Counted from the stretch's first letter, positions 3,464 to 50,315 are shown. The stretch: DNA of 64,000 nt from Candidatus Omnitrophota bacterium (GCA_035352955.1 DAOPYQ010000001.1:101536-165535), one strand, 5' to 3'. Translations and numbers: made by a program. The notes: generated from the letters alone by a model not told the origin.

Positions 3464-3472
3464 AGGGTTTCG

Positions 3473-4822: not shown

Positions 4823-4823
4823 T

Positions 4824-20246: not shown

Positions 20247-20683
20247 TGCTGAAAAAATTCTTCATCTTCCTCGCGATAGCGCTCGCCATCTTTCTGGTGT
20301 TGTGCTGGATCTACCTGCCGTCGGTCACGCGCTATCGCGAGCTGAAGCTTGAGGAAGAGAAGCTCAATAAGCGGATCCACGATATCGATATGAAGATCAA
20401 GGGTCTCGCCGAGGAGAAGAACCTTCTCCAGACCGATGTCGCCTACCTCGAAAAAGTGATCCGCGAAGAGCTTGGTTTCGTAAAACCCGGCGAGATCGTC
20501 TACGAACTTGTCACGAAAAAAGGTGCGCCGGTCCCAAAGCCGGACGCTCCGGCAGTAGCTCCCGCGCTTGCCTCAAAGACAACGCCTGATGTTGCCCAGG
20601 CATCTGTTGCGGCTACTTCGACGAAAAAAGTCGCGTCCGCGACGGCCGTTTCCAGAAAAAAATCCTCTTCGACGCGCCGCTAG
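20246..20683 (+). CDS. ftsB: Septum formation initiator-like protein (FtsB/DivIC family) with a low-complexity Ala/Ser/Thr-rich tail
   Basis: The 145-aa product has one N-terminal TM segment (FFIFLAIALAIFLVLCWIYL) followed by a coiled coil (ELKLEEEKLNKRIHDIDMKIKGLAEEKNLLQ), the typical FtsB layout. Its start overlaps the eno stop (TAATG). Confidence 0.6.
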
Positions 20684-20705
20684 AAGCGCGTTTGTTGTTT
20701 CTTTG
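20672..20705 (+). terminator. Putative rho-independent terminator after ftsB
   Basis: A stem ACGCGC/GCGCGT with an 8-nt loop (CGCTAGAA) is followed by a T-rich tract (TTGTTGTTTCTTTG). Confidence 0.35.
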
Positions 20706-20739: not shown

Positions 20740-20903
20740 TGAAAAATGTCAGAATTCTTTGAAAGTGCAACCTATCAAAAAATATCAATTTATAGCATTC
20801 CTGGCACATCAATAATTCCATAAATCCATGAATTTGCGCGATTTAGATCCGCCTGTTAAATTTCTAAAGACTTTTTAAATACCACAAAGTAAGGGCAGAG
20901 GTC
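20740..20903 (+). promoter_or_regulatory. AT-rich leader and promoter region of giant gene 1
   Basis: The region is markedly AT-rich compared with its GC-rich flanks. It contains TTGAAA at 20759-20764, TTTATAGCATT at 20789-20799 (also present upstream of gene 2) and a ribosome-binding site GGGCAGAGG before the ATG at 20904. Confidence 0.35.
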
Positions 20904-23900
20904 ATGGTAAAAAAAGGCGTATTCCATAGAGAGGACTGTCTCCGGAAAGTGATCGCTTTCCTGACAGTCCTTTTCTTTTTAACGACCGACCTCTTCGGGC
21001 CTAAGGCCTATGCCTTGTCTGCCGTACCCAATTCTGCACGCTCCATGTCTTCCCATGTTCAGGAGGGGAACCTCACCGGCGCTCCTTTGACCTCTGCCAA
21101 GTTTTCGAAGGTCGCCATCCCCTCCGAACATGGAACTATCCTTGAAAGATTTCAGGGAAAAACGGACCGGACCGTAGTCCTGATCCAGGATGCACACGAC
21201 GTTTCAGACGCCCAGGAGAACATCCGGGCGCTGATCGGCTATTTCCGGAAGACGTACGGGATCGGCCTTGTGGCGCTCGAAGGGGCGGCGGGACCGCTTG
21301 ATGCGCGGATCTTCCGGAGTTTTCCTGACAAGGAACTTTTGAAGAGTGTTCTCAAGGAATACCATGAAAAGGGCGAACTGACCGGCGCGGTTTCAGCGGC
21401 CATCCTGGATGAGGAGGCCGGGGATTATTTCGGGATCGAGGACTGGCAGCTTTACGAAGAAGGTCTTGCGCTCTACCGTGCGGCATCGGAAAAAGAGCCG
21501 CAGCTTTTAAAAGCCCTGAATGCCGAGAAGACGAAGAACGACGAGGCCAAGAAGAAACTTTATTCCGCGGACCTTTTTGCGATCGACCGGGGGTGGGGAA
21601 ACTTTTCCAGGGACGGGAAGGGGCTTGCCGAGCTCCTCGGGAAATTGGTTGCCGTCCGGAAACCGGCGCAGGGTTCGGGATTGGCGGCCATCGTCGAAGC
21701 TCTCGGGCAGGGATCATTCGACGGCGCCGCGCTTATTGCCGAAGTCGAAGCGCTTGCGGGGAAGGTCCGGCGCGCGCTTCAAGCGGCATCCGGCAAGGAA
21801 CAGGAAAGGTTCAAGAAGTTCAACGCGCTTTATCAGGATTTCCGCAGCTCAAGAATCACGCCGCAAGCCTTCGCTCTTGCCATGGGGCCCTGGCTTCGGG
21901 AGCACAGGGTCCCTTACAAGGCTTCCGGCGCACTTGAGAGATGGGTCCGCAACCAGAAGATGATCGAATCGATCCGCGGCCCGGAGCTTTTTGCGGAGCT
22001 CAAGGCCTATGTGGCTGAAGTGAAGACCGTTCTCATGAAAACGCCGGAGCAAAGATCGCTCGATGAACAGGGCGAAACGATCCGGATGCTGACAAACCTT
22101 GCCCGCCTCGAATTAAGTGATGAAGAATGGCGGACTTTGTGCGCAACGTCACGGGTCTCTTTGGATGATCGATTTCAGGATCACCGGAAGTTCTATGAGA
22201 ACGCGGAGAGGCGTGACGAGTGTTTTTACCGTAATCTTTCGGAGCGGATCGGTTCTCAGGGCCGAGAAGCGTCCCGGACGGCGCTTTTGGTCGCCGGGGG
22301 GTTCCACACCGAAGGGCTGACGCGCCGGTTCAGGGAGAACGGGATCTCCTATTTTCTTGTCTCGCCTCGCACCGGAGACGCCTCCCTAAAAACGAATTAC
22401 CGCGCCCATATCCGGGGCGACGTTTCCTGGAAGGACCATTTCAAGGTCGAGAATGGCCGCGTCGATCTTTACGCCGCGTTCATTCGCGCGACGCGGGATA
22501 AATTGTTGCAGACGGAACGCGGCAACCGGGGCCCGGAAGTTTTCCCTCCCGTTACTGTCCGGTTACCCTCGTTTGCGGCGAAGGAATGGCGCGATCAGAT
22601 CATTCGCGACCTGGCCCGGGAAGGGAAGATCGCCGAATCGTACCGCTATGTCCGGTTCATGGATGAAACCGCGGAAGGGAGCCGCACCTTTCCGGGGCTT
22701 GAAAAAGTCGACCGTTTTATCGAAGCGCTTCGCCGTCTGGAATCCTCCGGCGCGTTGACGCGGGAAAATATCGTCCATCTTTTAAAGCCGTCGACCATTC
22801 TTTCCGCAGCGGCCGGTAATGCGATCCTCGGCGGGATGACCGTGCCGGCGGCGTTGTTAGTCCGAGAAGGCGGTAAGCGGGACGAGAAACGGGATGAGAA
22901 GCAGGAGATCTCGGCCATGCTTCCTCCCCAAGGCGGGATTGACCTCAGCCGTTATCTATGGTTTCGGTCGCTCCGGGTGCCCGAAATGTACGGGATCCAC
23001 GGGCAGGTGAACGCGCTCAAAGTGAAGGAAGCCGAGTTTTTTGATAGTCGCGAGGACCCGGTGGGCGCGTTCCTGGCTTCAGAGGGTTTTTTGGCGCTCC
23101 CGAACGGCCGTGATCGTCGGGCCGCGCTGACGGCTTTAAGTGAGATCTGGAAAGCTATCAGCAACATCCATTTTGCCAAGGACAGAGTTGTCCGAGGCGA
23201 GAGCGCGTACGATGCGGTACGGGTCCTTGCCGAATATTTAAATCATCCGTTTATCCGGGGGATCAAGGATGATGCGGCTCGCCTTAAATCTATCGAGATC
23301 TTTCGTGAGATTTCGGTCGATACCGTCCTGGAGCTTAACAAGGAAAAGGACTGGCTCGTGAAGCTCTTGGCCGGGGCGGCAACCGCCGGGATCCGGGACG
23401 CCGGGGAAATGGAAGAGTTTTTCGAGATCCTCCACCGGATCCTGAAGAATGTTCTCTTCGATCGGGTTCGCGGCGTAAATGGTCGCGATGATTCTTTCCG
23501 GGACCTCGACGGCATTTTGCGCGATCCCGCGTTTCTCCGGCTGGAAACGTCCGGAGAGCGGAGGGAGGCCCTTGCGATGTTCAAGCGAGTTCTTCCTCTC
23601 GCGCCGCTTTCGCTTATCGGGGTTATCGAATTCAGCGGTGATAGTCGTAGCGCCAGTGTCTTTTTGAAAAGTTTCCTGGCCTCGGACCTTTTTTCGATTC
23701 TCCCGGATTCCCGGGCACGGGAGTACGGTATCGCGCTCATGTCCCGCTTGTATTTTCATAAAGATCCCGAGATCGCCGCGATTGTCAGAAATATTTTTTG
23801 GGAATTCCGCAAAGAAGATGACCGGTTGCAGGAGATTTTCCATAGAGCTATGGCGGACATCGCTTCGCGGAGCGGCCGTGTGGATATAGAACGAGTCGTT

Positions 23901-44900: not shown

Positions 44901-47900
44901 TACGGAGAACCTGCGCCGGACGGGTCCTGGATCACGCTGCAAAATCACTCACGCGATCCTTTTGAGGTGTACGACGTCAGGCGGGAGGTCAGCCTCAAGC
45001 TTCCGTTTGAAAGCCGATACGTCAGCGATGTCCGTTTTTCCCCGGACAGCCGGCGTATATCATTCGAATCCCGGGATCCGGATGATCTTGGGCGCCGTCA
45101 GGTTATTGACCTTGAAGCGTTCCGTGAGAACGGTTTTCTTAACAAATTATCGCAGACGGAGGAAGGCCCGAGTCTCCTGTTCCTGCTCTTCCGGAACGGG
45201 TTCTTTCAGCGCCAGGAGGCGGAGCCGTTCTTCGAATTAATGAAGGGGCTTCATCGGCCGAGGTTGGTCACACTGCCTCTCATGAAGTTCTTCACGACCT
45301 ATTATTACGAGAAAGAAGTGCCTGCCTATGTGGTCCGGGCGCCAGGAGTCCCTTTTGCCGACATTGCGGAAGCAATCGGGAGATTTTCGGAGGAAGCGCT
45401 TCGGGTGAAGGCAGAGTCAGGCGAACAAGCCGCAGTCCGGAATTTTGCGGCGCGTCTGGATCAATTCGAAGAACAGACCCTGGCCCGTCAGACGCGAGGG
45501 GAAGCGCAGTTGGTTTCCGGTCCTCAGGTCCCGAAGGTGGAGAGTGAAGGGAAATTGTGGTTTGAAACTCCAACGACGGATGACGGAGGTCGGATAGCGG
45601 AGGACGGAAGGCAAAAGGCAAAGGGTTTGACGTCCTCCGTCCTCCGTCCTCCGAAATCCGTAAGCGAAGATGGCAGCCGCGCCGAGCTTCGCAAGCTTCT
45701 GGAGGATCTCCGCGCGTTGGGGATCCGTGTTAAGGACTGGATCCTTTACCAAACGGTCTATCGATGGGTTTATTTTCATCCGATCATCAGGATCCGGGCC
45801 CTGTGGGCCGGGATTCTGAGCCTGGGAACGCGGGAAGGGCAGCTAAGGATTCTTTATCGATTCAAATACCGCCGGCAGATCCGCGAGATCCGGAAAGAGA
45901 TCTTACAATACGCGAAGGCGACGCACATGTTCAAACAGGACAAGGACCTGGCTCTCGGGGGATTCCGCCGGTTCGTGAAATACGGATTGGTCCTGGTGAA
46001 GGATGCCGCGGAGCGGGAAGAGCTTTTGGCGCTTTGCGCGCGGCTCCCCGGGCATTCCGGAAGCCAGATTTCCGTCGTTTGTATGCTTTTGGCCAGGGCG
46101 ATGGATCCCATCCTGATCCTTTTCCCTGGGCGTTCCGACCGGCATCGGGTCTTTCAACTGATCGAGAACCTTTCCCGGTACAGCGATCGTTCCTGGGGAT
46201 TTATGTCGGTAGCGCATTTGATAGAAGCTTTGGAAACGATCGTGGAATCTCAAAATCGGGACCGGAGAGAAGCGCTGATGCGGTACATGGAAGAATTCGG
46301 TCAAGAGACTGCCGGGATTCAGGATCCCGAGGCGCTGGAGAAGACATCTTTGCGCACTTGTCAAAATATCCTTCAGCTGGCCGATCAGGCCGATGCCCGT
46401 CAGACGCGGGGGGAGCCGCAAGGAACGGGACTCGAACCTTCCGCCCCAGGAGCGTCGGCGGACAGGCAGAATCCGGGACTCGGAGAAAAAGAAGGGAAGT
46501 TGTGGTTTGAAACGGCAAAACCGGATGACGGAAAACGGATAACGGATGGCGTAAAGCCTGGTTTTTCGCCATCCGAAAGCCTTCATCCTTCTTCCAAAGA
46601 TGACGGACGGCTCAAGGCAAAGGTTTTGACGTCCTCCGACATCCGTCCTCCGTTATCCTCCGCCGACGGCGGCGAACGGGCGGAGATCCGTAGCGCGGTG
46701 CAACGATCTACGGAGAAAGCGGTATTAGAAGCGAAGATCTTGTCCGCTCGGAGCAAGATTTATCGTTATTCAAGGGAGCATTTTAATTATGCCGGGGAGA
46801 AGGAATCCCAACTGGTGCGGATGGATGACGAGATCCGAAAATTTTTGATGGCTTTCAACGGCGCGGCGGAACGGAAAGCCCTGTTGGAAATATTGCAGAG
46901 CCTTTTTCGCTGTTGGAAAAAGGATGAAACTATGAATCCCTTTGCTTTATGGAGTGTGATCGCCACCTGGAATGCGGCATTGTCGGTCTATCCCGAAGGC
47001 GTGCTGCGGGGCATGATCGCAAGATTCATAGAAATCTTTTCGCAATATTTAGAAGAGGTGTCGGGGATGGATCTGGATATTACCGGATTTAAAGATGCTT
47101 TGATCTCTATTCATGGCGCAGCTGCCGATGGCAATGGTCCCTTGATGGCGGGTGTTTTTTCCGAGTTTTCTGAGGATGCGGGAGGGTTTTCCGATGCTCC
47201 GACAGCCGCAAAGGCTGTGAAAAGGGTGTATCAAGAAGTTTTCCGTGTGCTTGATCAAATAAGCTCCCGTGCGGCGCGGGGAGAAGCGCAGCCGGTTCCA
47301 AGTTCCCAGTCCCAGGCCCGTGAGGACAAGGAAGGGAAGTTGTGGCTTGAAATTCCAACGACGGATGACGGATCCCACGGGACTGCTTCGCCGGATCGGA
47401 GGACGGAGGACGGAAGGCTAAAGGCAAAGGGTTTTCCGACATCCGACATCCGTCCTCCGAAATCCGTAAGCGAAGATGGCAGCCGCGCAGAGCTTAAAGC
47501 GCAGCGCACAACGAAAAACGGAGCCCCAACGTTGACCGTTTCGCGTAGTACGTCGAACGCGGACGAAGTCCGCCGCGCCGAGCGGCGTTTCAGTGACGCG
47601 GAATATGCGACGGCGTATGAGAAACTCAAGTATTTCACTTCGATGGGGTTTGGGGCGCAGCAAGTCGCGGTCTCGGAGCACCTTAGGCGGGGAGTTGTGG
47701 AATACCGAGATGGGAGCGTCAGGGTTTTTGATCTTGAGACCGGGAAGGAGGGCGCGAAGCTCAACCTTGGCCCGGAGAGGGATCACTTGAAGATCGCGCC
47801 TAACGGTCGCTCCATCGCGGTCAAGTATAAGGACAACCGGTGGAAGATAGTCAGTTTGGAGACCGGTGCCGTAGTCTTCAATTTTACACCGGAAGATAAT

Positions 47901-50315
47901 GTCTGGTTCAATCATGCATCCGGAGACCTTTGGCTTAGTGAACCCACGGCCGGAACAAGAAGAACTCCGAGGATCTTTGATGTGGGTACCGGCCAAGAGA
48001 GGAAAGAATTCACTCCCGAGAAGGATGTGGAGGATGCCGAATTTTTGCCGGGGGACAAGCTCCTGACGCGTCGAGTCGGCGGCGTCCTGAAAGTGATGGA
48101 CCGTTCCACCGGGAAGGAGAAATGGAGCCGTTCCTTTCCGGAAGGGACGCTTGACAGTTTCAAGGTTTCACCGGACGGGCGCGTCTTGTACGTCGTGACG
48201 CGCGTCGGTGATGAAAGACAGCATCAGTTCTTTGACCTGGGAACGGGTGAGATGACTTTAAGTTTTTCACCGGGAGAGGCTCTCGTGTCCCGTCTTGATT
48301 TTGTCTTTGGTAGCGGGCACTGGATCTTCGTGACGTTCAGAGGAGAGAAGGGACCGGCGTTCTTCAACACGGTTTCGAACCCGCCTCAAAAAGAAATCCC
48401 GCTCCCTGACAATCATGTTTATGGCATGAGAGCCTTCGCCGGCGGGAAGTTCCTGAGTCTTGAGCCCTATTGCCCGCCGGACGGGCCTTCGATGGAACGA
48501 AGCCGTCTGGTGCTTGCGGAAACCATGAAGACGCCGGAGGCTTTTAATTTGGGTAAAAAGGATTCATGGCAGTTCTTTGACCAGGACCGCAAGATCATGA
48601 TCCAGAGCCCGGACAATACTTTCAGGATCCTGGAGGTGGATTCCGGAAGAGAACTCGGACGTCTTTCGTTGCCGGGAACGCGGGAGATGCGGTTCTGGAT
48701 TATCCAGGGCGACCGCTGGTTCGAAGCGAGCGTTAACGTTCCGGACCGGCACGAATATTGGGACCTTCGCTCGCCGGACTTTTCCCGGAAGCTGTCGTTG
48801 GGAGACAACCTGGATAGTTTCTGGACGTACGGGTCGCCGTCCATTGTTGTACGTTATTCGAACGAATTGCCGGGGTTGATCGACATGGATCGGTTCATCG
48901 AAGATCCGCTGTTTCTCGAATTAATGAATGAAAAGGGCGGGGTGTCTCTGCGTGTTCTTGCGATGCTGGAGATCTTCGGAGCGCTTGGGAGCAAGGGATC
49001 GTTTAAGGCTGCGGAGGAGCTGTTGCGGCAAGCTCCCGAGACGGAGTTGGAAGAACTTGAAAAGGCCCTTTTCGGATTTGGCAAGTTCCAGCCGGGTGTT
49101 TTACCCGGCACGAAGACGCCGGCGTTCAATGAATTGAGCCACTTATTGGAAGGGGTGCTTGCGGGGGTAGCGTCTGGAATGGAAAATGCCGGGCCCGGGA
49201 TTTCGGCACTAGTTCGTGGAATCTCGCAAATGGTCAAACAGGCGGGCGCCCGTCAGACGCGGGGGGAACCGCAGGACGTGCAACGCGCAACGCAGCGCCC
49301 TGACGTGCAACAGGGAGAGGAAGGGAAGTTGTGGCTTGAAACTCCAACGACGGATGACGGGGGTCGGATGGCGGAGGACGGAAGGCAAAAGGCAAAGGCT
49401 TCTTCGACATCCGATATCCGTCATCCGTTATCCTCCGCCGAAAGCGGCAGCCGTGCGGAAAAGCGTGCGCCGGTCGAGGTGACGGCGGAAGATCAAGTTG
49501 TCGCGCGGGATACGGTCGCGGTTTTGCTTGGCGCCGGGGCGAAGGACCGTGAACTCGGAGCTCTTGCGGAAAAAGTGCAGAAGACCGTGACGCGCATGCC
49601 TTTGGAGATCTTCGCGAAACTTCTGCGCCGGGAAGCGCTCCGGGTGTTGCATGCTGCCGGAATGGCCCCAACCGCGGCTTCCGTCAAGGTTAGCCAGGAA
49701 AAAGCGGAGCTCCTTGTGAAGTGGTTCGTCAAAGTATTGGAAACAAGCCATCGGAAGGGAAATCTCGCCATCGGTTTTGATATGGAGCCGGGGCAGAATT
49801 TTCTGGAAGCTTTAGCGAAACTTCGCGCCGGGATCGGGATCGCTGTTTTCAGCAAAGAGATGGCCCGCGCGATGCCGGGGGATGTTCTGAAAGGTCTCAG
49901 GACCCAGACCGTGACCAGTTTTACGAGTTACAAACCGCGGGCCGCGGAGAATACGGCGGTGCCTTTGCTTGCTTCGGATCTCGCGTCCGAGGAGCTGACC
50001 GCCAATCTCGCTCTCTTCGGTGTGGGGGTCGAGACGGAGGGTATCGAAGGTGAGCCGTTCCTTGAAGTGGTGGAGAACGTGGTCCGGATCGTGGGCGGTC
50101 TTTTAATGGCGGACCGGCTCAAATCTCCTGCGGATCTCAAGAATTCCGTGAAAATGGAAGAGATCAGGGCCGAGCTTTTGAAGGCTCTCTTCAAGCTGGA
50201 TGTCGATTCCGGCGTGCTTTCGATCCAGGGGCGAAACCTTATCGTGCACCGCGGTCTTCTCCAGAAATTTATCCTCGAATATCAGGCCCAATCGACGGTC
50301 CGTACCGCCGCGTAA
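20904..50315 (+). CDS. Giant gene 1: 9803-aa midasin-like megaprotein combining a signal anchor, a conserved N-domain, transmembrane segments, six AAA_5-type AAA+ domains, an HExxH motif, an acidic stretch, a VWA(MIDAS) domain, helical repeats, beta-propellers and 11 linker modules
   Basis: There is a single uninterrupted reading frame of 29,412 nt. It contains six in-frame Walker A motifs, sensor/Arg-finger signatures, a DxSxS MIDAS motif, and repeated in-frame modules. Confidence 0.85.
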   Translation: MVKKGVFHREDCLRKVIAFLTVLFFLTTDLFGPKAYALSAVPNSARSMSSHVQEGNLTGAPLTSAKFSKVAIPSEHGTILERFQGKTDRTVVLIQDAHDVSDAQENIRALIGYFRKTYGIGLVALEGAAGPLDARIFRSFPDKELLKSVLKEYHEKGELTGAVSAAILDEEAGDYFGIEDWQLYEEGLALYRAASEKEPQLLKALNAEKTKNDEAKKKLYSADLFAIDRGWGNFSRDGKGLAELLGKLVAVRKPAQGSGLAAIVEALGQGSFDGAALIAEVEALAGKVRRALQAASGKEQERFKKFNALYQDFRSSRITPQAFALAMGPWLREHRVPYKASGALERWVRNQKMIESIRGPELFAELKAYVAEVKTVLMKTPEQRSLDEQGETIRMLTNLARLELSDEEWRTLCATSRVSLDDRFQDHRKFYENAERRDECFYRNLSERIGSQGREASRTALLVAGGFHTEGLTRRFRENGISYFLVSPRTGDASLKTNYRAHIRGDVSWKDHFKVENGRVDLYAAFIRATRDKLLQTERGNRGPEVFPPVTVRLPSFAAKEWRDQIIRDLAREGKIAESYRYVRFMDETAEGSRTFPGLEKVDRFIEALRRLESSGALTRENIVHLLKPSTILSAAAGNAILGGMTVPAALLVREGGKRDEKRDEKQEISAMLPPQGGIDLSRYLWFRSLRVPEMYGIHGQVNALKVKEAEFFDSREDPVGAFLASEGFLALPNGRDRRAALTALSEIWKAISNIHFAKDRVVRGESAYDAVRVLAEYLNHPFIRGIKDDAARLKSIEIFREISVDTVLELNKEKDWLVKLLAGAATAGIRDAGEMEEFFEILHRILKNVLFDRVRGVNGRDDSFRDLDGILRDPAFLRLETSGERREALAMFKRVLPLAPLSLIGVIEFSGDSRSASVFLKSFLASDLFSILPDSRAREYGIALMSRLYFHKDPEIAAIVRNIFWEFRKEDDRLQEIFHRAMADIASRSGRVDIERVVDEAAESIRQMFAQREARQTRGEQQDAQRATQGAQREAEGKLWIETEKPGDGKRMTDGVKPGFSKSAIRHPLSSAEGDGRAELRVNPDEYPWFKSLEPLEKIGIRDQLNDLSEKERKNFPKSFGRLRRFLNSKGFSALRSGRERWEAITGLQKFWTRLVDNFGDDYSRSVRATRFGLFFEAYMASPFFMEMEGPAERLKALAIFHEIDFETVNHLDRYEGGILEILNKSVRAGINTAPEKVEVVEILRRSFQNIHQDSYKENVDLREVLAIFYEFLDVPAFSSLATPGERQAALSVLKNAYPTKSTRYSSKEHLNTILVTRAALVAFLKWDSFRNLSNPQARRYGLALFGRLLFPPETLKRGWIWIPKGLLDTRAAVAEIVREAFLHPGKSSEEVLNIFREVMERMDRERGQFQLKKMVVGAVRAVLQACDHILARKTRGEPQDAQRATDNVQREAEGKLWLETAKPDEGERMTDGVKPGFSTSDIRHPQSVSEDGGRAELRAKELIFLPSLSVIERRLKKDPGYATEANFEPFRKVLAGEDAAFNRLLNVLRWLPQKTIDAAEGVWRLLMKGAIAFLAISLAGGQIIAILLGSFGDPVLFFWLKSMGVAGLIAGGAAVMIRIANVLRERGLPSIRKNIHEARTVKSFKALRLFARQHSVFRSGKYLDYAGTHLRSRSFVVTKAAFGFLDQIHGWGFPPAWYPELFEALKPFFSKEFTVDRGVLAVLDQASFRKDKAEAIAFVRQQLEMMEEQEQARKERGTVQPVPASQRRGSGNVEGSLWEEKSFRAEVRVVSQTFADVVAKIRQTGTFGINVGLGQPRELFSGLAKQAPGEFNEANLGALIGEILDHSGAEAEAWWTILKAADPYFALAGAKDPALSPYSPANLRPVLERAITQDPPGKYVLNLLKRFSIRNQAAFDEENLRHCIDLFDLERREFFFRVKPFFSHLLVSGIFFTETQLDPFLDKVIEFFLRREREVDLSSFHGWITAVAAGVPGVALRALSLLFAIEVFPDFNDMKTFALNLFSILEKRYGPLDREAMVDAAEDLWNSMFPAPRVRNFWTTKTKSEFEAFDSLFRDFAASLDAARTAGSEKAYKQAVTQFKLQLHHYAGQRQARVTRGEPQDAQRAAQGTQGVTEGKLWAERAEDGLRSELRVTHPDIRERMRGLRQKIENQVGDTGAFGAYVQLLDLPPAAARSQVIGDISKELKKQARAIADTVTDPDPKVQETKQKTLLANLTVLAVLQTIDRNARKAASTEPAGDKFFGLYERESFVETAFFTHMTVSLSSLLKDLDPDYIEDEELRLLTFKIQTYFGLEAFFKSSPKVHFRPWFSKFLLNYILRERPELAQALYSLNPDQSLVGLLEDWSVESKLKFQECPEITILRDIVKRYQFTFRDFVSKKSGQPFDENEVSEQYQGDLEMLMEDETVRGLIQRDLRGLQDIVTIMLTEGRIEAEKAKKEKGGKDDGYGEVRYILEQIIPKALPKIRERLNNADPLEILDAMASIVQVANGEFSALMGKLLGAHPRIGDKYSRLIAGNVQRLKQIGLILVAVGETGFDQIPFDKLVARYKIVKGSDAEGRLLEIIANIARSAKEGTAGLIEETFDLYSQEAGETLDDLNKLLRAFNYFVRIVNFHYEYEKLVLAGEVGQINNETYFVSLRDLKKTLQIVRRNFNAGMDIKEAAADAVKRRYYNRLSPEDRDRVRGLMISHRIIHPHDELKFSYEVQGYEVGSREIVITEKRPPYQMQKKDRVTGQLYMEEIQVGKPREVMRIQFKEPLEPGDVDPDIIFNETTCRNLSAVLEALEVKNGEKFNPVLEFGTTAGGKSTIAKLAAKVLRVGYTRIQINERTDEFDLFGSFQPFEINMELGDAMERIREALDRGEYNALEDVLSRMLTGGEGKFWERFFSEEERREILAGQEGLDLHEAKRLAIQKRVLARVENILAQARELLPLEHAPAQDPKAAERIQLVKAMAYMLNHEVGLRYKKGRFLEAYEKGDLILLDEVNLANEEMLGVLYQLLTMGYLQHGGKVVEPASGQKARILATANPSSYGGRNRMSEAFMNRFEIIYIDSMTDEEMAEILEGTVHKDLIASGRYAAADFKKREGETPAECRQRLDQILLKEIGVTRYHLTLLARVQDKINGALRGGKFIGMGADADYVFTIRNYFNLYKDQMARKKQGQTLSLETWLREAFMEYGNVLMRTNTYLLNQPELLKEEASYKTLRNIFGLTIGDPILDLPSLQHPREGPAAADGTPTVRSTLRPENAHEAFDELVANWFRKIDYEYDRATHTLRIDGLTITGRTLEERKLIEELIETESTKYSQIAVLKALLLNEPLLNVGQSGGGKTESIGDIVQRLGRKYVTVSLGDATLESLLGNMEWNPREKRFVYVPGILVKAMQDGSALVLEELNMAKSGVIEILNEYFDEGTFTNPFTLEKIRVHSDFRLFATMNPVQGMTGQNGGRVSLSPALRNRFREVWVPHEKTDAEMREILQGRFAQKNIQVGDVSMKKILAFFHAYQEAFRFRGEAAYYTSPRDLTRIVRIMSYLITVCHMDEEKALSRAVRRVYFAKIAKEEDRNDVRKLIAEAKIPSGEIRAPSYRFSEDKRFLEAYDGQELVARFDVTAHRSRLEKMIEDEIGENDPGISGEALRSQTKSKLEQALKEATLVENAHTMENLLGLIEAVAMDDQDVRQGKFNPVLLLGETAGGKTSLVKYLAVAILGQGYTRIQINERTDELDLFGSYEPREMKIGTDDAVRIVQNAIEEKEWVKLKKALQMLRKGYAGEDEFDRLQDPERIFEQLAAEETAAREEIFLYLRQAVSDDADPQSRDAAIHRLKVIAYLVKNGAMSVEMEFREGRFLSALKRGDFIVLDEINLASEESIAVLYQFLTLGFVEYYNKDAKDENGNPHPRVEKIYPPAGMKLAATANPSGYGGRNRLSEALMNRFEIQYLQNMSPEQMSEIIMGESARKSVFAKNTRLAGTVLKLAKLQRQINLTLGSDANPFPSVGSGQTQGYLFTLRDLKRIMRSAEEILSQGSRSPPEALVVQQAYLEYLGVLGRSDDEVKHLLQIFKFPEFFPSFDPDQLNLSFEETRNARGRKVIRIGGFEIEERDYDGKGPSNEADVIEALEEGPLTNLIRIAIVKGLLDPRSPVMAVGQSGGGKTEMIGDVCRRLGWKYRSVSLGNASLERLIGGYERDRETKIFRYMVGELVRAMEDGAVFVLEEANMASSGLVEILNEYFDEGTFTNPLTGRKVVIHKDFRLFATMNPEVGVTGSNAGRVGFSPALRSRFKEVWVPHVKTSDETKRIIRKKFTNQKMKVSDKTVEQLYSIYEMFRTYVEGFNDETGLLHPARIGQVNNEGYYTSLRDMGKIADIMVQDMRRGVPESEALRYAVKRIYYLRLNCEEDRKVVREEILAGLDMTPMEYRWSLEGAEYVIRRGPIEVARVSAELLKKKHFVLTGPAKEEMGFLIEAMSRGPGFKRSFNPVMLFGETSGGKSTMIEIAAHIFRKKFRRIQINQRTDEYDLLGSYHPVEMKLSLARSLEVFQENLRKKNYSKIAKALRVLKKDVRLSLHLTEDEKVSDAELFQRFLDQYILPGVKREDSTVIEEARKLAVLIHNGVAGIDLVHQTGFFLEAVGNRDEGIPGRIVLLDEVNLANEESIGLLYQILTLGYMEYQGKRIYPGDGFQLVTSGNPFTYSGRNRMSEAFMNRFEMHVIPEMTPQEMVQILWEGYDLQAKGISQNALQEIVALQVRIHEESMKHSFDGFNLDNTYRFTLRNLERIVEDALKRKTVESSRSADECLWVEAYIEYAGLLSQSNEDDNAEKNNIATLKGLFHDTLLREGYAVLGKKIESGKKEELEKLLGVLGILTEKKTVDDMKAQLKEILAWSLGGNLGATLQVLKLVEAVTGKPYQPWYPDRDPLFMEFRKMAVTQEGQTEWAELGGVRVAKLSASEMLESFLKEFGTDTESGLLKGPNGEALEAFDGNSQKYILQQIQGIAVRRLKQEGGNLKDLLRQEVQKWIAGQLEGFRLPPGYIEGLLRKHFYTQAERIEQLVELRSTLIPRMQIMKGFRDGGVVQTEDTEGNPVAIHKSRPVNEIGQSGGGKTEMVADIARELNWPYMSVALGAATVESLVGEFVLNDQTGAFEFRKGILVRAMEEGAALVLEELNMAESGVIEILNEYFDRGVMTIQGRKISVKIHRNFRLFATMNPTEGRTGKNAGRIPLSPALRSRFRETWVRSERTKAEQYRMALGGIRDLVNGLMERGIPEESEDAMGILEENLTRQKIAERSGLRNLPKGRDSIEDGVTVEAVRPVTARPAARSPSAPAVSMAAPAGEPAVKIPTKGEWERLHLEERKKLYEDTFSIITGKADIKLVAGKGWSWAPASHVLTYDEKDIENLSLNALLGVGIHEAMHRIGTRYLSLFWEFFDEHGIESRVFNTLEDGRIENWGRFLFGGAATPLRATNDEVVFGKVKDVDEMVERFVFRQKDKEGNVVELSYTSAIINFFLYLGKRGSDANAPEVIEKFLKAFEKRDPQLRRDLAGLLQAGYFGGGRDEDILNPPNQNRVSGVFSKLPMKRNEFGTYEFDANPAGTTVENLAIEQGIIIRECIMPIVYKWAVKDLADVPSGKGKKGKGGREVIPRKSSGGGGEDDSDGDDGGESDGESEPGQPADGSPKDFKPGKPAKGGQPVKPMTPAEWKAIWDKLSNEDKKKLTDKIDKGVEHKAQDRTAKDSKDYQKAQQDAEIGKPMSERDRLMGLLGRMITELSGYLRDIIQNSVRPKEITGLKRGRIDVRRLINSMARGFTDMRFYKQRILPQKKNVKFTIIVDESGSMSGMEEPGKKVEINTPQKGYRTLMGVTLLMEVLESLGIDFAVRGYHDTTCLHKRFKNQRIPSDKKDQYLEAGQDAVQDGYTTRRDKESLIDLLRQSIGRGGNNEGPALEAAIRDAGEAGGERHYIIILTDGMGDEEAIKKHVAQLRQANGMVNGTKVELIAIGLGNDCESVINNYGGRYSIWLKDDEVQKLPAELKRILQEVIRGVFQPGAPGANRFENMARGFSLAGVAGMVGASRVRSELRASEKVPSLSGAEDEGLGEDQKTWFRSLQFRSPEERSELLKVIRDSHFYYEDLVGETPGGSPDFQYKFGDGLPILQTFWESESFTTLPDSRERILVLRLFDGILNTGDYFMIQQAARILERLVGPEILGKVTDPQERVLALEVTADILVQSSVYSPWGNTISRSETVMDSFLYFLSTYYPEINKNFEKNAETWGFFREIIRAGYEPERRFEETSRAFGMLGKLMDLAGFERVGGPEAKKRVLGVVKDILVYSQPGSQEAFEALRTLLGGQGFGSIQDPDEQGVVLEILCAVPFLARERADAYFQRFDQMLSWASGGAASFHEKRFREILLEFSSRPRSAEAAENACQKIIQLADQSAARETRGEQSPVPEPQALLAGRQSSVLENKEGKLWFEIPTTDDGDRMAEDGRLKAKGFSTSDIRPPQSVSEDVSRAERNAQRTTKNGDSTLTVARGTSNADEIRRAELRISGIPMIPLDRYQWFNADTNEEHKAELRRKVALLENELRRYQGDELREALRCFKDWFASKDWTAAGVDYEQRLKMLEIAVNLQIHVYPGMVYSDGRPAFDHEKLKPFSAFLKSDAFRQIVDPAERQRVFGVLADIPPRAGDAAPKAFKALEAFLGRAGFSGRVDPSERTRMLEVFRQTVLDISNKNVKGDAFAGLEALNRIKAVSDLADPASLKKIFDLFWEIGRTRDYWKCDSFEPLAQFLASDAVRGIKHFEDLCAIFDICKTLVDLGIKNRAAAFWGLEGFLRTQDFSMREDAVLRGILLKEFSGIFALVGNVGGYYSDERSGALVALGDFFNRKWGFERLETNRKVIDLLGMILPGLADEDVRGWIEAFGLDISAISHTESLKGEPMVNILQEFSQGAESVTGAEERKALAQAAAEKIRALADHAQARAARGEAHDAQRVANGAQRGVEGKLWNQTAERRSEVRSGQGEETQKTINLKKKDWLGRYDWYKRISSQDEKKRTGNLVRDVSLEVWRYASREKPTNFDPLWRLLGSEGFGRITDSKEREELLNVFLKIMKEIFEKRYVDERANLAFPKENKDHALEAFASFLGSSAFSRTTNPKERLRMLGRARSILMRFAQYEPHDRTVALSNLEEFFRSNGFNKDLSPAEQGKVLQLLGTLPQYTRGGLDHAILALWVMIEGAGFSGIMGSGERIIALKKFGATAAGLPRYEKAGWNDVTRRGTEWEVYAALRELLSSGYFNRIKDSAERIKVFDDFAALVNIAAVGKEERPDLVLEVFRHIFQGALFTETADPGEQRIVWGILRKLAAYRNAYQVTDDLADLLNGDGLKAVVLREERALIWEIIKPLAQDAEKDGGCNFFRALNTLLSGKGFQQTKAPSERLGVLRLAGLLLDPEDDEIDHKMKDLSEALVELQDALQEGVRTADLPALLSDLFENAAYVRSRKEKLALAVSAWRQIIQSASQGLSRIDRGEPQAAQRATHTPQGLGTGRPGAQREEEGKLWLETAKPEDGKRMTDGVKPGFSTFDIRPPKSVSEDASRAERNAQRTTKNGDSTLTVARAEVRGGRMPKEKAFDQVKRIAAMYQMMQSSSENKVPGTLSPDNRYYIPYLSERVIDILTGQELPLSKQLSFARASETVFSKDGRFLAAVDCSSPLFPLRKPGIAEIYDLETLQTSVARLQSKPLREDGRPVWISRENRYLVVHYLDSTTEVFRIEPGAAELTKVEGLGENVYEMDISEDGTWFHMPYFLRDNKARSIDLLNGKEYPVAAGRTAEIVPWRYGSAVVFLPKEHGNPMRLLDRKTGKDIADQVGPYSGVVVHSPDGRKLLLRGTGHALNLVVNENGVWKKTALALKTRSSTEPVAVFSEDGRRLAVADIEPGFILVYDADKTDKNPERYSICPTPNEIFFPERIVFVAGQKRLLIKIGVKGAIRSPQWLYASLSRENVASSFWITDKTHDGVYGEPAPDGSWITLQNHSRDPFEVYDVRREVSLKLPFESRYVSDVRFSPDSRRISFESRDPDDLGRRQVIDLEAFRENGFLNKLSQTEEGPSLLFLLFRNGFFQRQEAEPFFELMKGLHRPRLVTLPLMKFFTTYYYEKEVPAYVVRAPGVPFADIAEAIGRFSEEALRVKAESGEQAAVRNFAARLDQFEEQTLARQTRGEAQLVSGPQVPKVESEGKLWFETPTTDDGGRIAEDGRQKAKGLTSSVLRPPKSVSEDGSRAELRKLLEDLRALGIRVKDWILYQTVYRWVYFHPIIRIRALWAGILSLGTREGQLRILYRFKYRRQIREIRKEILQYAKATHMFKQDKDLALGGFRRFVKYGLVLVKDAAEREELLALCARLPGHSGSQISVVCMLLARAMDPILILFPGRSDRHRVFQLIENLSRYSDRSWGFMSVAHLIEALETIVESQNRDRREALMRYMEEFGQETAGIQDPEALEKTSLRTCQNILQLADQADARQTRGEPQGTGLEPSAPGASADRQNPGLGEKEGKLWFETAKPDDGKRITDGVKPGFSPSESLHPSSKDDGRLKAKVLTSSDIRPPLSSADGGERAEIRSAVQRSTEKAVLEAKILSARSKIYRYSREHFNYAGEKESQLVRMDDEIRKFLMAFNGAAERKALLEILQSLFRCWKKDETMNPFALWSVIATWNAALSVYPEGVLRGMIARFIEIFSQYLEEVSGMDLDITGFKDALISIHGAAADGNGPLMAGVFSEFSEDAGGFSDAPTAAKAVKRVYQEVFRVLDQISSRAARGEAQPVPSSQSQAREDKEGKLWLEIPTTDDGSHGTASPDRRTEDGRLKAKGFPTSDIRPPKSVSEDGSRAELKAQRTTKNGAPTLTVSRSTSNADEVRRAERRFSDAEYATAYEKLKYFTSMGFGAQQVAVSEHLRRGVVEYRDGSVRVFDLETGKEGAKLNLGPERDHLKIAPNGRSIAVKYKDNRWKIVSLETGAVVFNFTPEDNVWFNHASGDLWLSEPTAGTRRTPRIFDVGTGQERKEFTPEKDVEDAEFLPGDKLLTRRVGGVLKVMDRSTGKEKWSRSFPEGTLDSFKVSPDGRVLYVVTRVGDERQHQFFDLGTGEMTLSFSPGEALVSRLDFVFGSGHWIFVTFRGEKGPAFFNTVSNPPQKEIPLPDNHVYGMRAFAGGKFLSLEPYCPPDGPSMERSRLVLAETMKTPEAFNLGKKDSWQFFDQDRKIMIQSPDNTFRILEVDSGRELGRLSLPGTREMRFWIIQGDRWFEASVNVPDRHEYWDLRSPDFSRKLSLGDNLDSFWTYGSPSIVVRYSNELPGLIDMDRFIEDPLFLELMNEKGGVSLRVLAMLEIFGALGSKGSFKAAEELLRQAPETELEELEKALFGFGKFQPGVLPGTKTPAFNELSHLLEGVLAGVASGMENAGPGISALVRGISQMVKQAGARQTRGEPQDVQRATQRPDVQQGEEGKLWLETPTTDDGGRMAEDGRQKAKASSTSDIRHPLSSAESGSRAEKRAPVEVTAEDQVVARDTVAVLLGAGAKDRELGALAEKVQKTVTRMPLEIFAKLLRREALRVLHAAGMAPTAASVKVSQEKAELLVKWFVKVLETSHRKGNLAIGFDMEPGQNFLEALAKLRAGIGIAVFSKEMARAMPGDVLKGLRTQTVTSFTSYKPRAAENTAVPLLASDLASEELTANLALFGVGVETEGIEGEPFLEVVENVVRIVGGLLMADRLKSPADLKNSVKMEEIRAELLKALFKLDVDSGVLSIQGRNLIVHRGLLQKFILEYQAQSTVRTAA
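20946..21008 (+). other. N-terminal signal peptide / signal anchor of giant protein 1
   Basis: The sequence MVKKGVFHREDCLRKVIAFLTVLFFLTTDLFGPKAYALSA has a positive n-region, a hydrophobic core and an AYA-type cleavage site. Confidence 0.6.
21100..22860 (+). other. Conserved N-terminal domain of about 590 aa, paralogous to gene 2 50690..52410, with possible TraB/GumN/TIKI-like GxxH motifs (tentative)
   Basis: Shared blocks include VVLIQDAHD.., ENIR.LI.YF, LLVAGGFHT.GL, W+D.F...+GRVD and AWRDQIIRDLA....AAAGNAILG. Both LIQDAH and GGFH are invariant between the two genes. Confidence 0.5.
23944..24148 (+). repeat. Linker module copy 1 (RQTRGE..EGKLW..ETxKPxDGKRMTDGVKPGFS..IRHP..RAELR)
   Basis: In frame. 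It contains the inverted repeat CGGATGACGGATGG / CCATCCGTCATCCA. Confidence 0.7.
25204..25402 (+). repeat. Linker module copy 2
   Basis: Reads RKTRGEPQDAQRATDNVQREAEGKLWLETAKPDEGERMTDGVKPGFSTSDIRHPQSVSEDGGRAELR. Confidence 0.7.
25461..25490 (+). other. Conserved DPGYATEANF motif preceding the internal transmembrane module, with a paralog in gene 2 at 61238..61267
   Basis: LKKDPGYATEANFEPFRKVLAGEDAAF in gene 1 matches LRRDPGYATEANFKPFRKVLTGKDAAF in gene 2. Confidence 0.6.
25600..25775 (+). other. Internal predicted transmembrane segments of giant protein 1 (2-3 helices)
   Basis: The hydrophobic segments are AIAFLAISLAGGQIIAILLGSF and VLFFWLKSMGVAGLIAGGAAVMIRIANVL. Confidence 0.55.
26170..26275 (+). 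repeat. Degenerate linker module copy 3
   Basis: Reads ERGTVQPVPASQRRGSGNVEGSLWEEKSFRAEVR; only the ends of the module are retained. Confidence 0.4.
27241..27372 (+). repeat. Truncated linker module copy 4
   Basis: Reads ARVTRGEPQDAQRAAQGTQGVTEGKLWAERAEDGLRSELR. Confidence 0.55.
29330..30330 (+). other. AAA+ domain 1 (A-type, AAA_5 MoxR/dynein/midasin-like)
   Basis: The motifs are Walker A GTTAGGKST at 29355-29381, Walker B LILLDEVN with DE at 29904-29909, and sensor/Arg region ATANPSSYGGRNRMSEAFMNRFE. Confidence 0.8.
30880..31700 (+). other. AAA+ domain 2 (B-type)
   Basis: The motifs are Walker A GQSGGGKT at 30915-30938, Walker B-like LVLEELN (Glu-Glu variant), and sensor FATMNP..GRVSLSPALRNRFRE. 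Confidence 0.8.
31970..32960 (+). other. AAA+ domain 3 (A-type)
   Basis: The motifs are Walker A GETAGGKTS at 32001-32027, Walker B FIVLDEINLASEE, and sensor ATANPSGYGGRNRLSEALMNRFE. Confidence 0.8.
33330..34120 (+). other. AAA+ domain 4 (B-type)
   Basis: The motifs are Walker A GQSGGGKT at 33360-33383, Walker B-like FVLEEANMASSG, and sensor FATMNP..GRVGFSPALRSRFKE. Confidence 0.8.
34330..35290 (+). other. AAA+ domain 5 (A-type)
   Basis: The motifs are Walker A GETSGGKST at 34362-34388, Walker B IVLLDEVNLANEE, and sensor TSGNPFTYSGRNRMSEAFMNRFE. Confidence 0.8.
36170..36650 (+). other. AAA+ domain 6 (B-type)
   Basis: The motifs are Walker A GQSGGGKT at 36189-36212, Walker B-like LVLEELNMAESG, and sensor FATMNP..GRIPLSPALRSRFRE. 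Confidence 0.8.
37000..37700 (+). other. Putative zinc-metallopeptidase-like region carrying HEAMH, between the AAA ring and the VWA domain
   Basis: The HExxH motif (HEAMH) is encoded at 37125-37139, followed by NTLEDGRIENWG about 30 aa later, which could supply a third Glu ligand. Confidence 0.45.
37780..37925 (+). other. Acidic Gly/Asp/Glu/Ser-rich stretch preceding the VWA domain
   Basis: The sequence GKGKKGKGGREVIPRKSSGGGGEDDSDGDDGGESDGESEPGQPADG sits in the same relative position as the D/E-rich region that precedes the MIDAS domain in eukaryotic midasin. Confidence 0.7.
38350..38990 (+). other. von Willebrand factor A domain with an intact MIDAS motif
   Basis: The DxSxS motif DESGS is encoded at 38379-38393, in the context KFTIIVDESGSMSG. 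Downstream lie ..IIILTDGMGDEE and VELIAIGLGND, as expected for a VWA domain. Confidence 0.8.
40190..40525 (+). repeat. Linker module copy 5 (long form with the RAERNAQRTTKNGDSTLTVAR extension)
   Basis: About 97 % identical in DNA to copy 7 over roughly 117 bp. It has the second palindrome GCGCAACG...CGTTGCGC. Confidence 0.75.
40560..43380 (+). repeat. Array of about 55-aa alpha-helical repeats with a DPxER-type core (gene 1, main block)
   Basis: Units include FSGRVDPSERTRMLEVF, FSRTTNPKERLRMLGRA, FNKDLSPAEQGKVLQLL, FNRIKDSAERIKVFDDF, FTETADPGEQRIVWGIL and FQQTKAPSERLGVLRLA. Further units occur at 23000-25200 and 39300-40100. Confidence 0.6.
41805..41925 (+). repeat. Truncated linker module copy 6
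   Basis: Reads ARAARGEAHDAQRVANGAQRGVEGKLWNQTAERRSEVR. Confidence 0.55.
43425..43715 (+). repeat. Linker module copy 7 (long form)
   Basis: Reads RGEPQAAQRATHT..EEEGKLWLETAKPEDGKRMTDGVKPGFSTFDIRPPKSVSEDASRAERNAQRTTKNGDSTLTVAR. Confidence 0.75.
43740..45100 (+). other. PD40/WD40-like beta-propeller block 1 of giant protein 1
   Basis: Blade-like units with SPDGR/SEDGR signatures recur: FSKDGRFLAAVD, VHSPDGRKLLL, FSEDGRRLAVADIEPGFILVYD, FSPDSRRISFESRD. Confidence 0.55.
45484..45695 (+). repeat. Linker module copy 8 (variant B, ETPTTDDGGRIAEDGRQKAKG..)
   Basis: It has the inverted repeat GGAGGACGGAAGG / CGTCCTCCGTCCTCC. Confidence 0.7.
46395..46700 (+). repeat. Linker module copy 9 (composite of variants A and B)
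   Basis: Reads ARQTRGEPQGTG...EGKLWFETAKPDDGKRITDGVKPGFSPSESLHPSSKDDGRLKAKVLTSSDIRPPLSSADGGERAEIR. Confidence 0.7.
47266..47590 (+). repeat. Linker module copy 10 (variant B, long form)
   Basis: Reads RAARGEAQPVPSS..EGKLWLEIPTTDDG..EDGRLKAKGFPTSDIRPPKSVSEDGSRAELKAQRTTKNGAPTLTVSR. Confidence 0.75.
47590..48900 (+). other. Beta-propeller block 2 of giant protein 1
   Basis: Units include FDLETGKEGAKLNL, IAPNGRSIAVKY, VSPDGRVLYVVTRVGDERQHQFFDLGTGE and ILEVDSGRELGRLSL. Confidence 0.5.
49247..49462 (+). repeat. Linker module copy 11
   Basis: Reads ARQTRGEPQDVQRATQRPDVQQGEEGKLWLETPTTDDGGRMAEDGRQKAKASSTSDIRHPLSSAESGSRAEKR. Confidence 0.7.
49440..50315 (+). other. C-terminal domain of giant protein 1 (about 290 aa), function unknown
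   Basis: This is a non-repetitive segment after the last linker module and ends at the TAA at 50313-50315. I recognise no family. Confidence 0.4.

Follow-up and report, generated by a model that had tools for sequence, protein, structure and literature searches.

Within a stretch of 64,000 nucleotides (nt) from a Candidatus Omnitrophota bacterium (GCA_035352955.1 DAOPYQ010000001.1:101536-165535), which I will call the window and number from its first letter, a single giant gene, gene A (20904..50315; all features given below lie on the plus strand unless stated otherwise), encodes a protein of 9,803 amino acids (aa) that, by motif and profile comparison, belongs to an undescribed family of prokaryotic proteins akin to midasin. 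What carries this assignment is a conserved midasin-like core (27363..39107; aa 2154-6068, 3,915 aa long and with no linker repeat inside) that consists of a pre-ring region, six AAA modules, a domain with an HExxH motif, a variable tether and a MIDAS domain, and to which the recognisable enzymology of the protein is confined. An earlier note on this DNA had described the product as a bacterial midasin-like megaprotein, and this is largely right, except that the full eukaryotic architecture is not there and that the HExxH domain is extra. My best explanation overall, held with moderate confidence, is that this would be a single-chain midasin-type machine built into a modular giant, where it would remodel or cut ligands captured by the MIDAS domain, possibly including the giant's own modules.

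The six tandem AAA_5 modules occupy 29241..36773 and comprise three copies of a pair in which an insert-bearing GET-type module is followed by a compact GQS-type one. Their Walker A motifs begin at aa 2818, 3338, 3700, 4153, 4487 and 5096 (nt 29355, 30915, 32001, 33360, 34362 and 36189), in every case exactly where the earlier note had put them, and each is followed by a Walker B motif, the sensor-1 NP and GR..(L/M)S.A..NRF, the full motif set being present in all six. Pfam matches AAA_5 at 3.6e-77 over six stretches (aa 1-5000) and at 6.6e-20 for the last module, AAA_3 is matched as well, and the midasin AAA lid, AAA_lid_7, scores 27.7 bits, which is above the Pfam cut-off. In the first module type Walker A reads G-E/T-T-x-G-G-K and Walker B is preceded by a helical insert of ~100-115 aa, whereas the second is compact and reads G-Q-S-G-G-G-K-T, so that the spacing from Walker A to Walker B runs 178/62/164/62/156/62 through modules 1-6, compared with 62-66/167/63/119-125/66/154-157 in the two midasins P0021 and P0069. 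In those midasins the GET/GDT signature is found on the long modules AAA2 and AAA4 (and on AAA6 in one of the two), and odd and even modules fall into two similarity classes in the window protein and in midasin alike. Measured by these spacings and signatures, insert-bearing and compact modules alternate in both proteins, but in the window protein the phase is shifted by one module, which leaves the correspondence to the inserts in AAA2, AAA4 and AAA6 of midasin a tentative one.

A lid of the compact module type stands ahead of the ring (28734..29018; aa 2611-2705) and matches the lid of module 4 at E=5e-13 with 36% identity (BLASTP), while module 6 (36189-36773) ends, in the alignment, without a lid of its own, giving the order lid-long-short-long-short-long-short with only the large part of the last module present. 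Such an order is what one would expect from circularly permuting the modules of midasin with the cut falling inside the first one, between its large and its small half, and because a lid stands at the front and module 6 lacks one, I infer that the two ends meet and that the six modules close into a ring. The pre-ring region has no match among solved structures.

Now considering how close this ring stands to midasin, the solved structures in the PDB give midasins at 3e-84 to 8e-81, followed by CobS (1e-7), NorQ (5e-7) and CbbQ (6e-4), a lead of ~75 orders of magnitude. In an exhaustive phmmer search of one two-module unit against 1.84 billion representative proteins, which returned 494 proteins at E<=1e-30, the top ~12 were members of the same family, those named by NCBI being called only 'AAA family ATPase [Candidatus Omnitrophota bacterium]'; the next rank consisted of proteins of 4,700-5,500 aa with 8-10 matched stretches, of which the two that were looked up, P0021 and P0086, bear the name of fungal midasins, and a midasin-like acidic region is present in 91 of the proteins listed. 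No other prokaryotic family stood in this ranking between the protein's own family and the eukaryotic midasins. The placement of the ATPase modules in the AAA_5/midasin clade thus survives the profile searches that had been proposed as its check, and what does not survive is the suggestion of a dynein-class motor: the clade is that of midasin and MoxR, no dynein chain was among the PDB matches (E up to 1e-3), and the dynein models of Pfam gave only short P-loop matches.

What follows the ring is where the protein both resembles midasin and departs from it. A MIDAS-type VWA domain with an N-terminal extension lies at 38136..39053, its DESGS motif falling exactly at the predicted nt 38379-38393 (aa 5826-5830), and although the single sequence scores 20.6 bits against a Pfam cut-off of 23.8, a post-ring profile built from nine family members matches the MIDAS domain of Rea1 (6qt8) at E=1e-4, compared with 0.046 for CobT, in an alignment that also spans the extension preceding D-x-S-x-S. 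Between ring and MIDAS domain sits the HExxH domain (36921..37823), zincin-like in its motif (HEAMH at 37125-37139, then NTLEDGRIEN), whose motif is invariant in 9/9 and 8/8 relatives, which is present in all prokaryotic relatives examined, and for which Pfam, NCBIfam and the PDB gave no family match; a resemblance of FN.LEDGRIE to the N-terminal region of CobT is weak and non-significant (score -3.5) and serves as a lead only. Next comes a Gly/Asp/Glu low-complexity tether (37833..37919; aa 5644-5672, GGGGEDDSDGDDGGESDGESEPGQPADGS) beginning ~1.06 kb past the end of the ring. The acidic stretch announced at about 1.1 kb after the ring is therefore in place, but it measures only 29 aa and is not conserved as acidic, the relatives having variable G/K/E/Q low-complexity sequence of differing length and charge at this point (KGMKGMKGM in L010, for example). 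Homologue searches with this part of the protein returned little: aa 5050-6050 found one 870-aa fragment and generic MoxR/HEAT proteins, and aa 5318-6076 found no match, in a database that seems to be without such giants.

The comparison with midasin can be drawn in some detail. Alike are the six AAA_5 modules on one chain, the midasin-type lid, apart from its phase the alternation of compact modules with modules that carry an insert between Walker A and Walker B, and the C-terminal MIDAS domain with D-x-S-x-S and a similar N-terminal extension. Midasin itself has a linker of ~1,700 aa, a region rich in Asp and Glu (D/E) of ~600 aa and a MIDAS domain of ~300 aa (PMC11603028), whereas the window protein has ~350 aa between ring and tether, a region that holds the HExxH motif, the matches to midasin being confined to the AAA and MIDAS parts; its D/E density peaks at 25 per 100 aa compared with 38-58 in the midasins scanned, its module order is shifted by one with one lid permuted to the front, all six of its ATP sites are intact, and an HExxH motif upstream of the MIDAS domain was present in none of the midasins inspected. 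The order of ring, linker, acidic region and MIDAS that the earlier note had equated with midasin consequently holds in coarse outline, without the ~1,700-aa linker and without a real D/E-rich region. In addition, the window protein is part of a membrane-associated modular giant of a bacterium without a pre-60S pathway, and its three two-module units score 175-254 bits against each other and up to 85 bits against any midasin module, a pattern of mutual likeness that would fit either independent triplication or concerted evolution. Because the long linker and the D/E-rich region are missing, an HExxH domain has been added and the units resemble each other in this way, the protein is best classed on these comparisons as a prokaryotic sister kind and not as a midasin orthologue.

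The core is not peculiar to one genome, being conserved in at least 17 others while its flanks vary. When one genome per GTDB species was scanned with an alignment of the three internal AAA units, 17 loci were found at 33-73% identity, all of them in giant stop-free frames, and of these (numbered with the prefix L) ~11 are entered as Omnitrophota or Omnitrophica or under named Candidatus taxa, 5 are metagenome-assembled genomes (MAGs) called 'uncultured bacterium' and 1 is labelled Chlamydiae. BLAST with the whole protein showed aa ~2170-6080 to be collinear at 42-53% identity in L004, L005, L009, L010, L011, L014 and L015, while the flanks of the core, with the exception of the N-terminal domain, are not conserved. 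Eight cores were aligned (42-53% identity, 3,400-3,700 residues), and in them all six Walker A, sensor-1 and Arg motifs are conserved and all six Walker B motifs are kept, with 'DE' in odd modules and 'EE' in even ones, the exception being module 4 of L010, which reads 'DE'. By these motifs all six ATP sites are conserved and appear catalytically complete. Conserved across the same alignment are G(V/I)HE(A/S)MHR...N.(L/I)(E/D)DGRIEN and, in 7/8 cores, D-x-S-G-S, L014 having D-A-S-E-S instead.

Beyond these loci, a cassette of several AAA_5 modules, then HE..H, then ~400 aa and then D.SGSM is found in ~12 prokaryotic representatives. In Pfam, six AAA_5 modules and midasin lids are found in both P0020 (4,005 aa, labelled as a Thermoproteota archaeon) and P0089 (4,471 aa), as is a VWA domain of 40-56 bits at the C-terminus, and P0040, a partial Elusimicrobiota protein, has two modules by their Walker A pattern followed by an HExxH motif and a VWA domain. 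Modules of P0020 score up to 131 bits against fungal midasin, compared with up to 85 bits for those of the window protein. Among P0020, P0089, P0157 and P0040 are thus single-chain proteins from outside Omnitrophota in which six AAA_5 modules alternate between GET and GPT types and are joined by HExxH and a C-terminal VWA domain.

This distribution is of interest because a protein carrying six AAA modules in tandem has been derived from MoxR 'early in eukaryotic evolution' (PMC3495828) and midasin is counted among eukaryotic inventions (PMC2837639), and a literature search found no description of a prokaryotic single-chain midasin homologue, with a mention in Iyer et al. 2004 or Garbarino and Gibbons 2002 being possible. 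The family is closer to midasin than the other prokaryotic proteins found, which would provide an outgroup for rooting the evolution of midasin and dynein, and with it the pull of a ring on a MIDAS hook could be studied in a simpler system that lacks the 1,700-aa linker. Among the giant Omnitrophota proteins, a class otherwise without annotation, it also singles out the one enzymatic core that is conserved. A bolder proposal, which I regard as distinctly unlikely, joins two ideas: that the cassette is a prokaryotic lineage ancestral or sister to midasin, and that in Omnitrophota it became an engine for processing or assembling giants through recognition by the MIDAS domain of a boundary motif, R-[AS]-E-[LVI]-R. 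If the first were true, a one-chain, six-module ring made from a two-module unit would predate eukaryotes; if the second were, it would supply the cleavage points that are missing for giant proteins.

How might such a machine work? In the explanation that I favor, a single-chain midasin-type machine, the six modules would form one closed ring in which the N-terminal lid completes module 6; the tethered MIDAS domain would capture an acidic side chain of a protein ligand through a metal ion and dock on the ring; and ATP hydrolysis by the ring would then pull or remodel the captured ligand. I infer capture, docking and ATP-driven remodelling by analogy, from midasin, where the MIDAS domain binds its ligand through a metal ion and docks on the ring (PMC11603028), and from the pairing of MoxR with VWA proteins, a general theme (PMC7159879) for which it has been proposed that the vWA domain recruits a substrate, MoxR unwinds it and a peptidase cleaves it (PMC3495828). 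If the HExxH domain were catalytic, it may cut the captured chain in the manner of AAA-zincin proteases such as FtsH, in which an AAA+ ring is likewise joined to HExxH and associated with the membrane; this is a functional analogy of pulling and cutting, since FtsH belongs to another AAA+ clade and the HExxH domain of the window protein, matching no peptidase family, has only putative catalysis. The most speculative step is that the ligand, and possibly the cut site, would be R-[AS]-E-[LVI]-R with its invariant Glu, in which case both the surrounding giant protein and a neighbouring paralogue would have their modules processed or assembled by the core at the membrane.

Several observations weigh against this explanation and deserve to be set out together. 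The force-producing linker of midasin is missing; the compact, even modules have 'EE' (VLEELNMA) in place of the usual 'DE' of Walker B (30915-31200, 33360-33650 and 36189-36480); the HExxH domain, matching no known family, could be a structural metal site; and a structure prediction of the post-ring region from the single sequence reached a predicted local distance difference test score (pLDDT) of 34.7 and was unusable. The boundary motif is absent from the divergent core-bearing relatives L003, L009, L012-L015, L017 and L018. Finally, the N-terminus of gene A resembles a Sec signal, and L010 and L014 have no hydrophobic segment between the N-terminal domain and the AAA core, so that a genuine signal would send the ATPase ring out of the cytoplasm, where ATP is not at hand. 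With regard to the second of these, the 'EE' of the compact modules is kept in nearly all relatives and is also seen in P0089.

The boundary motif nevertheless merits a closer look as a candidate processing site or MIDAS ligand. In gene A it occurs 10 times against 0.18 expected from shuffles (24135, 25389, 26259, 27348, 39108, 40500, 41904, 43701, 45678 and 46677, 15 nt each), in the visible part of the downstream paralogue, gene B, 5 times against 0.11, and in L004 11 times against 0.12, and an enrichment is also found in L002, L005, L007, L008, L010, L011 and L016, with other linker sequence being different. Two copies frame the core exactly, RSELR at 27348..27362 (aa 2149-2153) abutting its start and RSELR at 39108..39122 (aa 6069-6073) abutting its end, and behind the VWA domain L004, L005 and L010 have a related motif and L011 a looser version of one. 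Since the listed DNA copies encode the motif with different codons, it looks like a signal at the level of protein, and it is a candidate, concrete enough to be tested, for the places where modules meet or are cleaved. More generally, the motif stands at module boundaries with a 50- to 100-fold excess over shuffles.

These same copies lend themselves to another reading, which I consider doubtful: that the giant open reading frame (ORF) encodes a polyprotein that is cut at R-[AS]-E-[LVI]-R into ~15 proteins, setting free a bacterial midasin of ~3,900 aa with other substrates in the cell. The motif does coincide exactly with the start and the end of the core and closes most of the linkers, the modules differ among relatives while the core is constant, P0020 and P0089 contain in their 4,000-4,500 aa little beyond the cassette of six AAA modules, HExxH and VWA, and cleavage of giant Omnitrophota proteins has been proposed in the literature, with cleavage points that are not known. 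Against it, the motif is missing in several relatives and no dedicated protease was identified besides the unclassified HExxH domain; moreover, a polyprotein overlaps with a midasin-type machine in a modular giant and does not exclude it.

The relatives of the ATPase beyond midasin raise a further option, an ordinary MoxR-VWA maturation chaperone fused into a scaffold, which would insert metal into, or reactivate, one enzyme complex while the other modules localise it. Its appeal is that the ATPase has its next-best structural relatives in CobS, NorQ and CbbQ, that CobT is second best for the VWA region and that the pairing of MoxR with VWA is so general (PMC7159879). The known pairs (NorQ-NorD, CbbQ-CbbO, CobS-CobT and RavA-ViaA) share the MoxR/helix-2-insert AAA+ clade with the window protein, and CobT also has a VWA/MIDAS part with an N-terminal extension and a low-complexity segment, but in these systems one-module subunits form a homo-hexamer and the VWA protein is separate, whereas the window protein has six modules of two types and a VWA domain in one ORF. 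The matches to CobS, NorQ and CbbQ are, besides, at least 75 orders of magnitude weaker than those to midasin, the housekeeping genes around gene A include no client enzyme, and in Omnitrophota the core is always inside giant modular ORFs, which together leave this option improbable.

Whether the chain leaves the cytoplasm bears on a third alternative, an exported protein for predation or adhesion that would be secreted or displayed on the surface as a whole, with the ring acting outside the cell, acting in prey or serving as a non-catalytic scaffold. The segment in question is basic and hydrophobic (20904..21017; aa 1-38, ending in ...VIAFLTVLFFLTTDLFGPKAYA/LS), could by hydropathy scans be either a signal peptide or a membrane anchor, and has counterparts in gene B, L010 and L014, all four being signal-like with A-x-A-type ends. 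A hydrophobic cluster further on (25569..25778; aa 1556-1625) would provide two or three transmembrane (TM) helices; should it form a two-helix hairpin in gene A, the parts before and after it would lie on the same side of the membrane. The secretion signal and TM segments that had been claimed for this protein correspond to the hydrophobic N-terminus and the cluster as predicted by a hydropathy scan. In favor of export are these N-termini, the lack of a TM segment between N-terminus and core in L010 and L014, and published proposals that giant Omnitrophota ORFs serve in attachment and predation. Nonetheless, the six ATP sites are under strong purifying selection, which argues for catalysis and hence for access to ATP, and their strong conservation favors a cytoplasmic location; Pfam also finds no adhesin, dockerin, lectin or glycoside-hydrolase domain in the protein, and export of the whole chain seems to me quite improbable.

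The reading frame itself had been reported as a stop-free ORF of 29.4 kb at 20904-50315 encoding 9803 aa, and these coordinates are exact: it starts with ATG and has zero internal stops over 29,412 nt, and a gene call of 9,803 aa is also present on the JGI metagenome contig Ga0116171_10000061 (103 kb), to which the window corresponds by an exact match of the neighbouring enolase. Neither the longest exact DNA repeat in the two giant genes, at 66 bp, nor the mutual identity of the three internal AAA units, at only 37-43%, makes it likely that the ORF arose through repeat collapse. An artefactual origin, whether repeats that collapsed into a chimera during assembly or a pseudogene in decay that happens to read as a single frame, has next to no probability. 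Seventeen dispersed linker repeats could confuse a short-read assembly, and the giant frame is split in two in L003, L007 and L008; against this, exact repeats are as short and the AAA units as dissimilar as just described, the core stays collinear and free of stops across 3,400-3,700 aligned residues in at least 7 independent genomes, and the enolase gene beside it occurs on 6 contigs and in two further places with mostly the same neighbour proteins. The three splits lie in or near the AAA region (L003, 15705-15817; L007, 11866-11870; L008, 10001-10127), take the form of an overlap, a single stop or a frameshift, and could be assembly error, a real split gene or recoding.

The host deserves mention here, its SecY being 100% identical to that of a 'Candidatus Omnitrophota bacterium' MAG. 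ORFs of more than 20 kb are common in Omnitrophota (PMC10066038), so a giant ORF is in itself unsurprising, and AAA_5 is among the 20 most frequent domains in giant proteins of this phylum (bioRxiv 10.1101/2023.11.21.568195). With the giants described in Seymour 2023, West-Roberts 2023 and a 2026 survey, the window protein shares the phylum, an ORF above 20 kb (29.4 kb here), hydrophobic segments, few annotated domains and a frequent domain in AAA_5. It differs from the Archaeovorin/dockerin-type giants of West-Roberts 2023 in size (9.8 kaa compared with >30 kaa) and in having no SecA-DEAD, dockerin, C39 or S8 domains by Pfam. None of these three papers mentions midasin, dynein, MoxR or VWA or reports a boundary motif, and the term 'von Willebrand' is absent from the two in which it was looked for.

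Outside the core, the protein of gene A consists of modules strung together by a recurring linker of ~70 aa: the basic and hydrophobic N-terminus is followed by a conserved domain of ~600 aa, helical repeats, the hydrophobic cluster and the core, and then by more helical-repeat modules, two beta-propeller-like modules and a C-terminal domain, most of these modules having no family match in Pfam or NCBIfam. The linker peptide reads AR.TRGE...EGKLW.ET...DG.RMTDGVKPGFSTSDIRHP...G.RAELR, has 11 copies in gene A and at least 7 in as much of gene B as is visible, and is found neither inside the core nor in the window outside the two giant genes; a search of a metagenome contig collection with its DNA pattern and peptide profile gave no match. 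The first two repeats of gene A (23916..24149, reading AR.TRGE...EGKLW...RMTDGVKPGFS..IRHP...RAELR, and 25170..25403) contain a hairpin, and they are followed by two short variants, EGSLW...RAEVR without the hairpin part (26133..26273) and EGKLW...RSELR directly before the core (27213..27362). After the core come a repeat with hairpin (40182..40514), a short variant EGKLW...RSEVR (41775..41918), another repeat with hairpin (43422..43715), one whose hairpin reaches -54 kcal/mol (45450..45692), one with a duplicated middle part (46395..46691), one with a hairpin of -56 kcal/mol (47235..47588) and a last one with hairpin (49224..49466). The EGKLW codons start at 24012, 25266, 27309, 40278, 41871, 43518, 45546, 46491, 47331 and 49320 in gene A and at 54272, 55292, 57044, 59798, 61031, 61946 and 63458 in gene B, where the copies span 54176-63600.

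At the level of DNA the linkers are uniform in the sense that the 15-mer GAAGGGAAGTTGTGG is exact in 12/17 copies against 0.17 chance matches expected, and differing codons are used at only 18% of identical linker residues. The peptides RMTDG and DIRHP are encoded by the reverse-complementary arms of the hairpin, and ten copies fold at -36 to -56 kcal/mol with z-scores from -2.6 to -5.3. The hairpin shows almost no covariation, the copies being too alike, and for this reason a function as RNA is inseparable from homogenisation of the DNA; the palindrome may play a role in the mRNA or in recombination between modules or be a selfish element, and an Rfam scan of the window matched no RNA family. 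Rickettsia palindromic elements are in-frame palindromic repeats inside genes, and the linkers resemble them as dispersed palindromic DNA of ~140-330 bp that is read in frame, with the difference that all copies in the window lie at domain boundaries, in two paralogous genes, on one strand and in one frame. The relatives have analogous linkers of different sequence: DEIFKAEAKSLG in L003, EQAPSSNLRGLINQTPEVR.SRAEVR in L010, GNREQGTGIRSQD in L011 and PDAIVGDLE in L014.

The conserved N-terminal domain (21081..22853; aa ~60-650) has invariant D-x-H, E-G-A, R and G-G-F-H, is 40% identical to its counterpart in gene B (50600-52432) and 32% identical to the start of the giant ORF of L010 (L010:3050-4873), and is also found in L009 and in L014 (L014:1253-2860, within a complete ORF of 6,885 aa). 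It was without a match in Pfam, PDB profiles, NCBIfam and PADLOC, and a structure prediction from the two window paralogues was unusable at a pLDDT of 43.9. Its assignment to the TIKI/TraB/ChaN superfamily was entertained on a by-eye resemblance of D-x-H...E...R...G-x-x-H and is unsupported. Wherever it occurs, the domain opens a giant ORF, behind a hydrophobic segment with a conserved Asp.

Two beta-propeller-like modules lie toward the C-terminus, one at 43713..45083 with weak matches only and one at 47589..48893 with a match to ANAPC4_WD40 of 31.7 bits, above the cut-off, its other matches being weak. The propellers that had been proposed thus correspond to two propeller-like segments, one of them with a match above its cut-off. 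A helical-repeat signature, (S/G)xxF..(L/I).(D/S)..ER...L, recurs at least 14 times in gene A (window 22971-25178 and 39081-43418) and also appears in gene B; it matches no Pfam repeat family.

Gene B (50483..64000), a paralogue of gene A, begins 167 nt after its end and runs off the end of the window after at least 4,506 aa. Like the palindromic linkers, the boundary motif and the family of relatives, it goes unmentioned in the earlier note. It has the N-terminal domain, the linkers, the propeller-like modules and the TM module as in gene A, and no AAA module within its visible part. Paralogous blocks beginning at the boundary motif were not cleanly seen when the two genes were compared by BLAST, the high-scoring segment pairs being dominated by the linkers. 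Gene A is preceded by a terminator-like hairpin (20671-20692) and a promoter-like site (20789-20816), and no comparable terminator-like or promoter-like element lies in the gap between gene A and gene B.

The genes 5' of gene A are those of an ordinary bacterial chromosome, namely rplE...secY-adk-map-rpsD-rpoA-rplQ, an aminotransferase gene, an mfd-like gene, surA, pdxA and ksgA, together with genes for a polyprenyl synthase and a formyltransferase, eno and a DivIC-family gene. A defence system was considered as well and discarded, PADLOC giving only one marginal AAA match. The mfd-like gene (11541-13472) encodes 643 aa with UvrB_inter, CarD/TRCF RID, DEAD and Helicase_C matches and no match to the C-terminal domain of TRCF; the usual Mfd, at ~1,150 aa, is much longer. 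Lastly, unusually long ORFs run antisense to the core on the minus strand (within 26532-39569), at 27813-29978 (721 aa), 31782-33941 (719 aa), 35178-37139 (653 aa) and 37278-39569 (763 aa), and the codon usage of the sense frame probably accounts for them.

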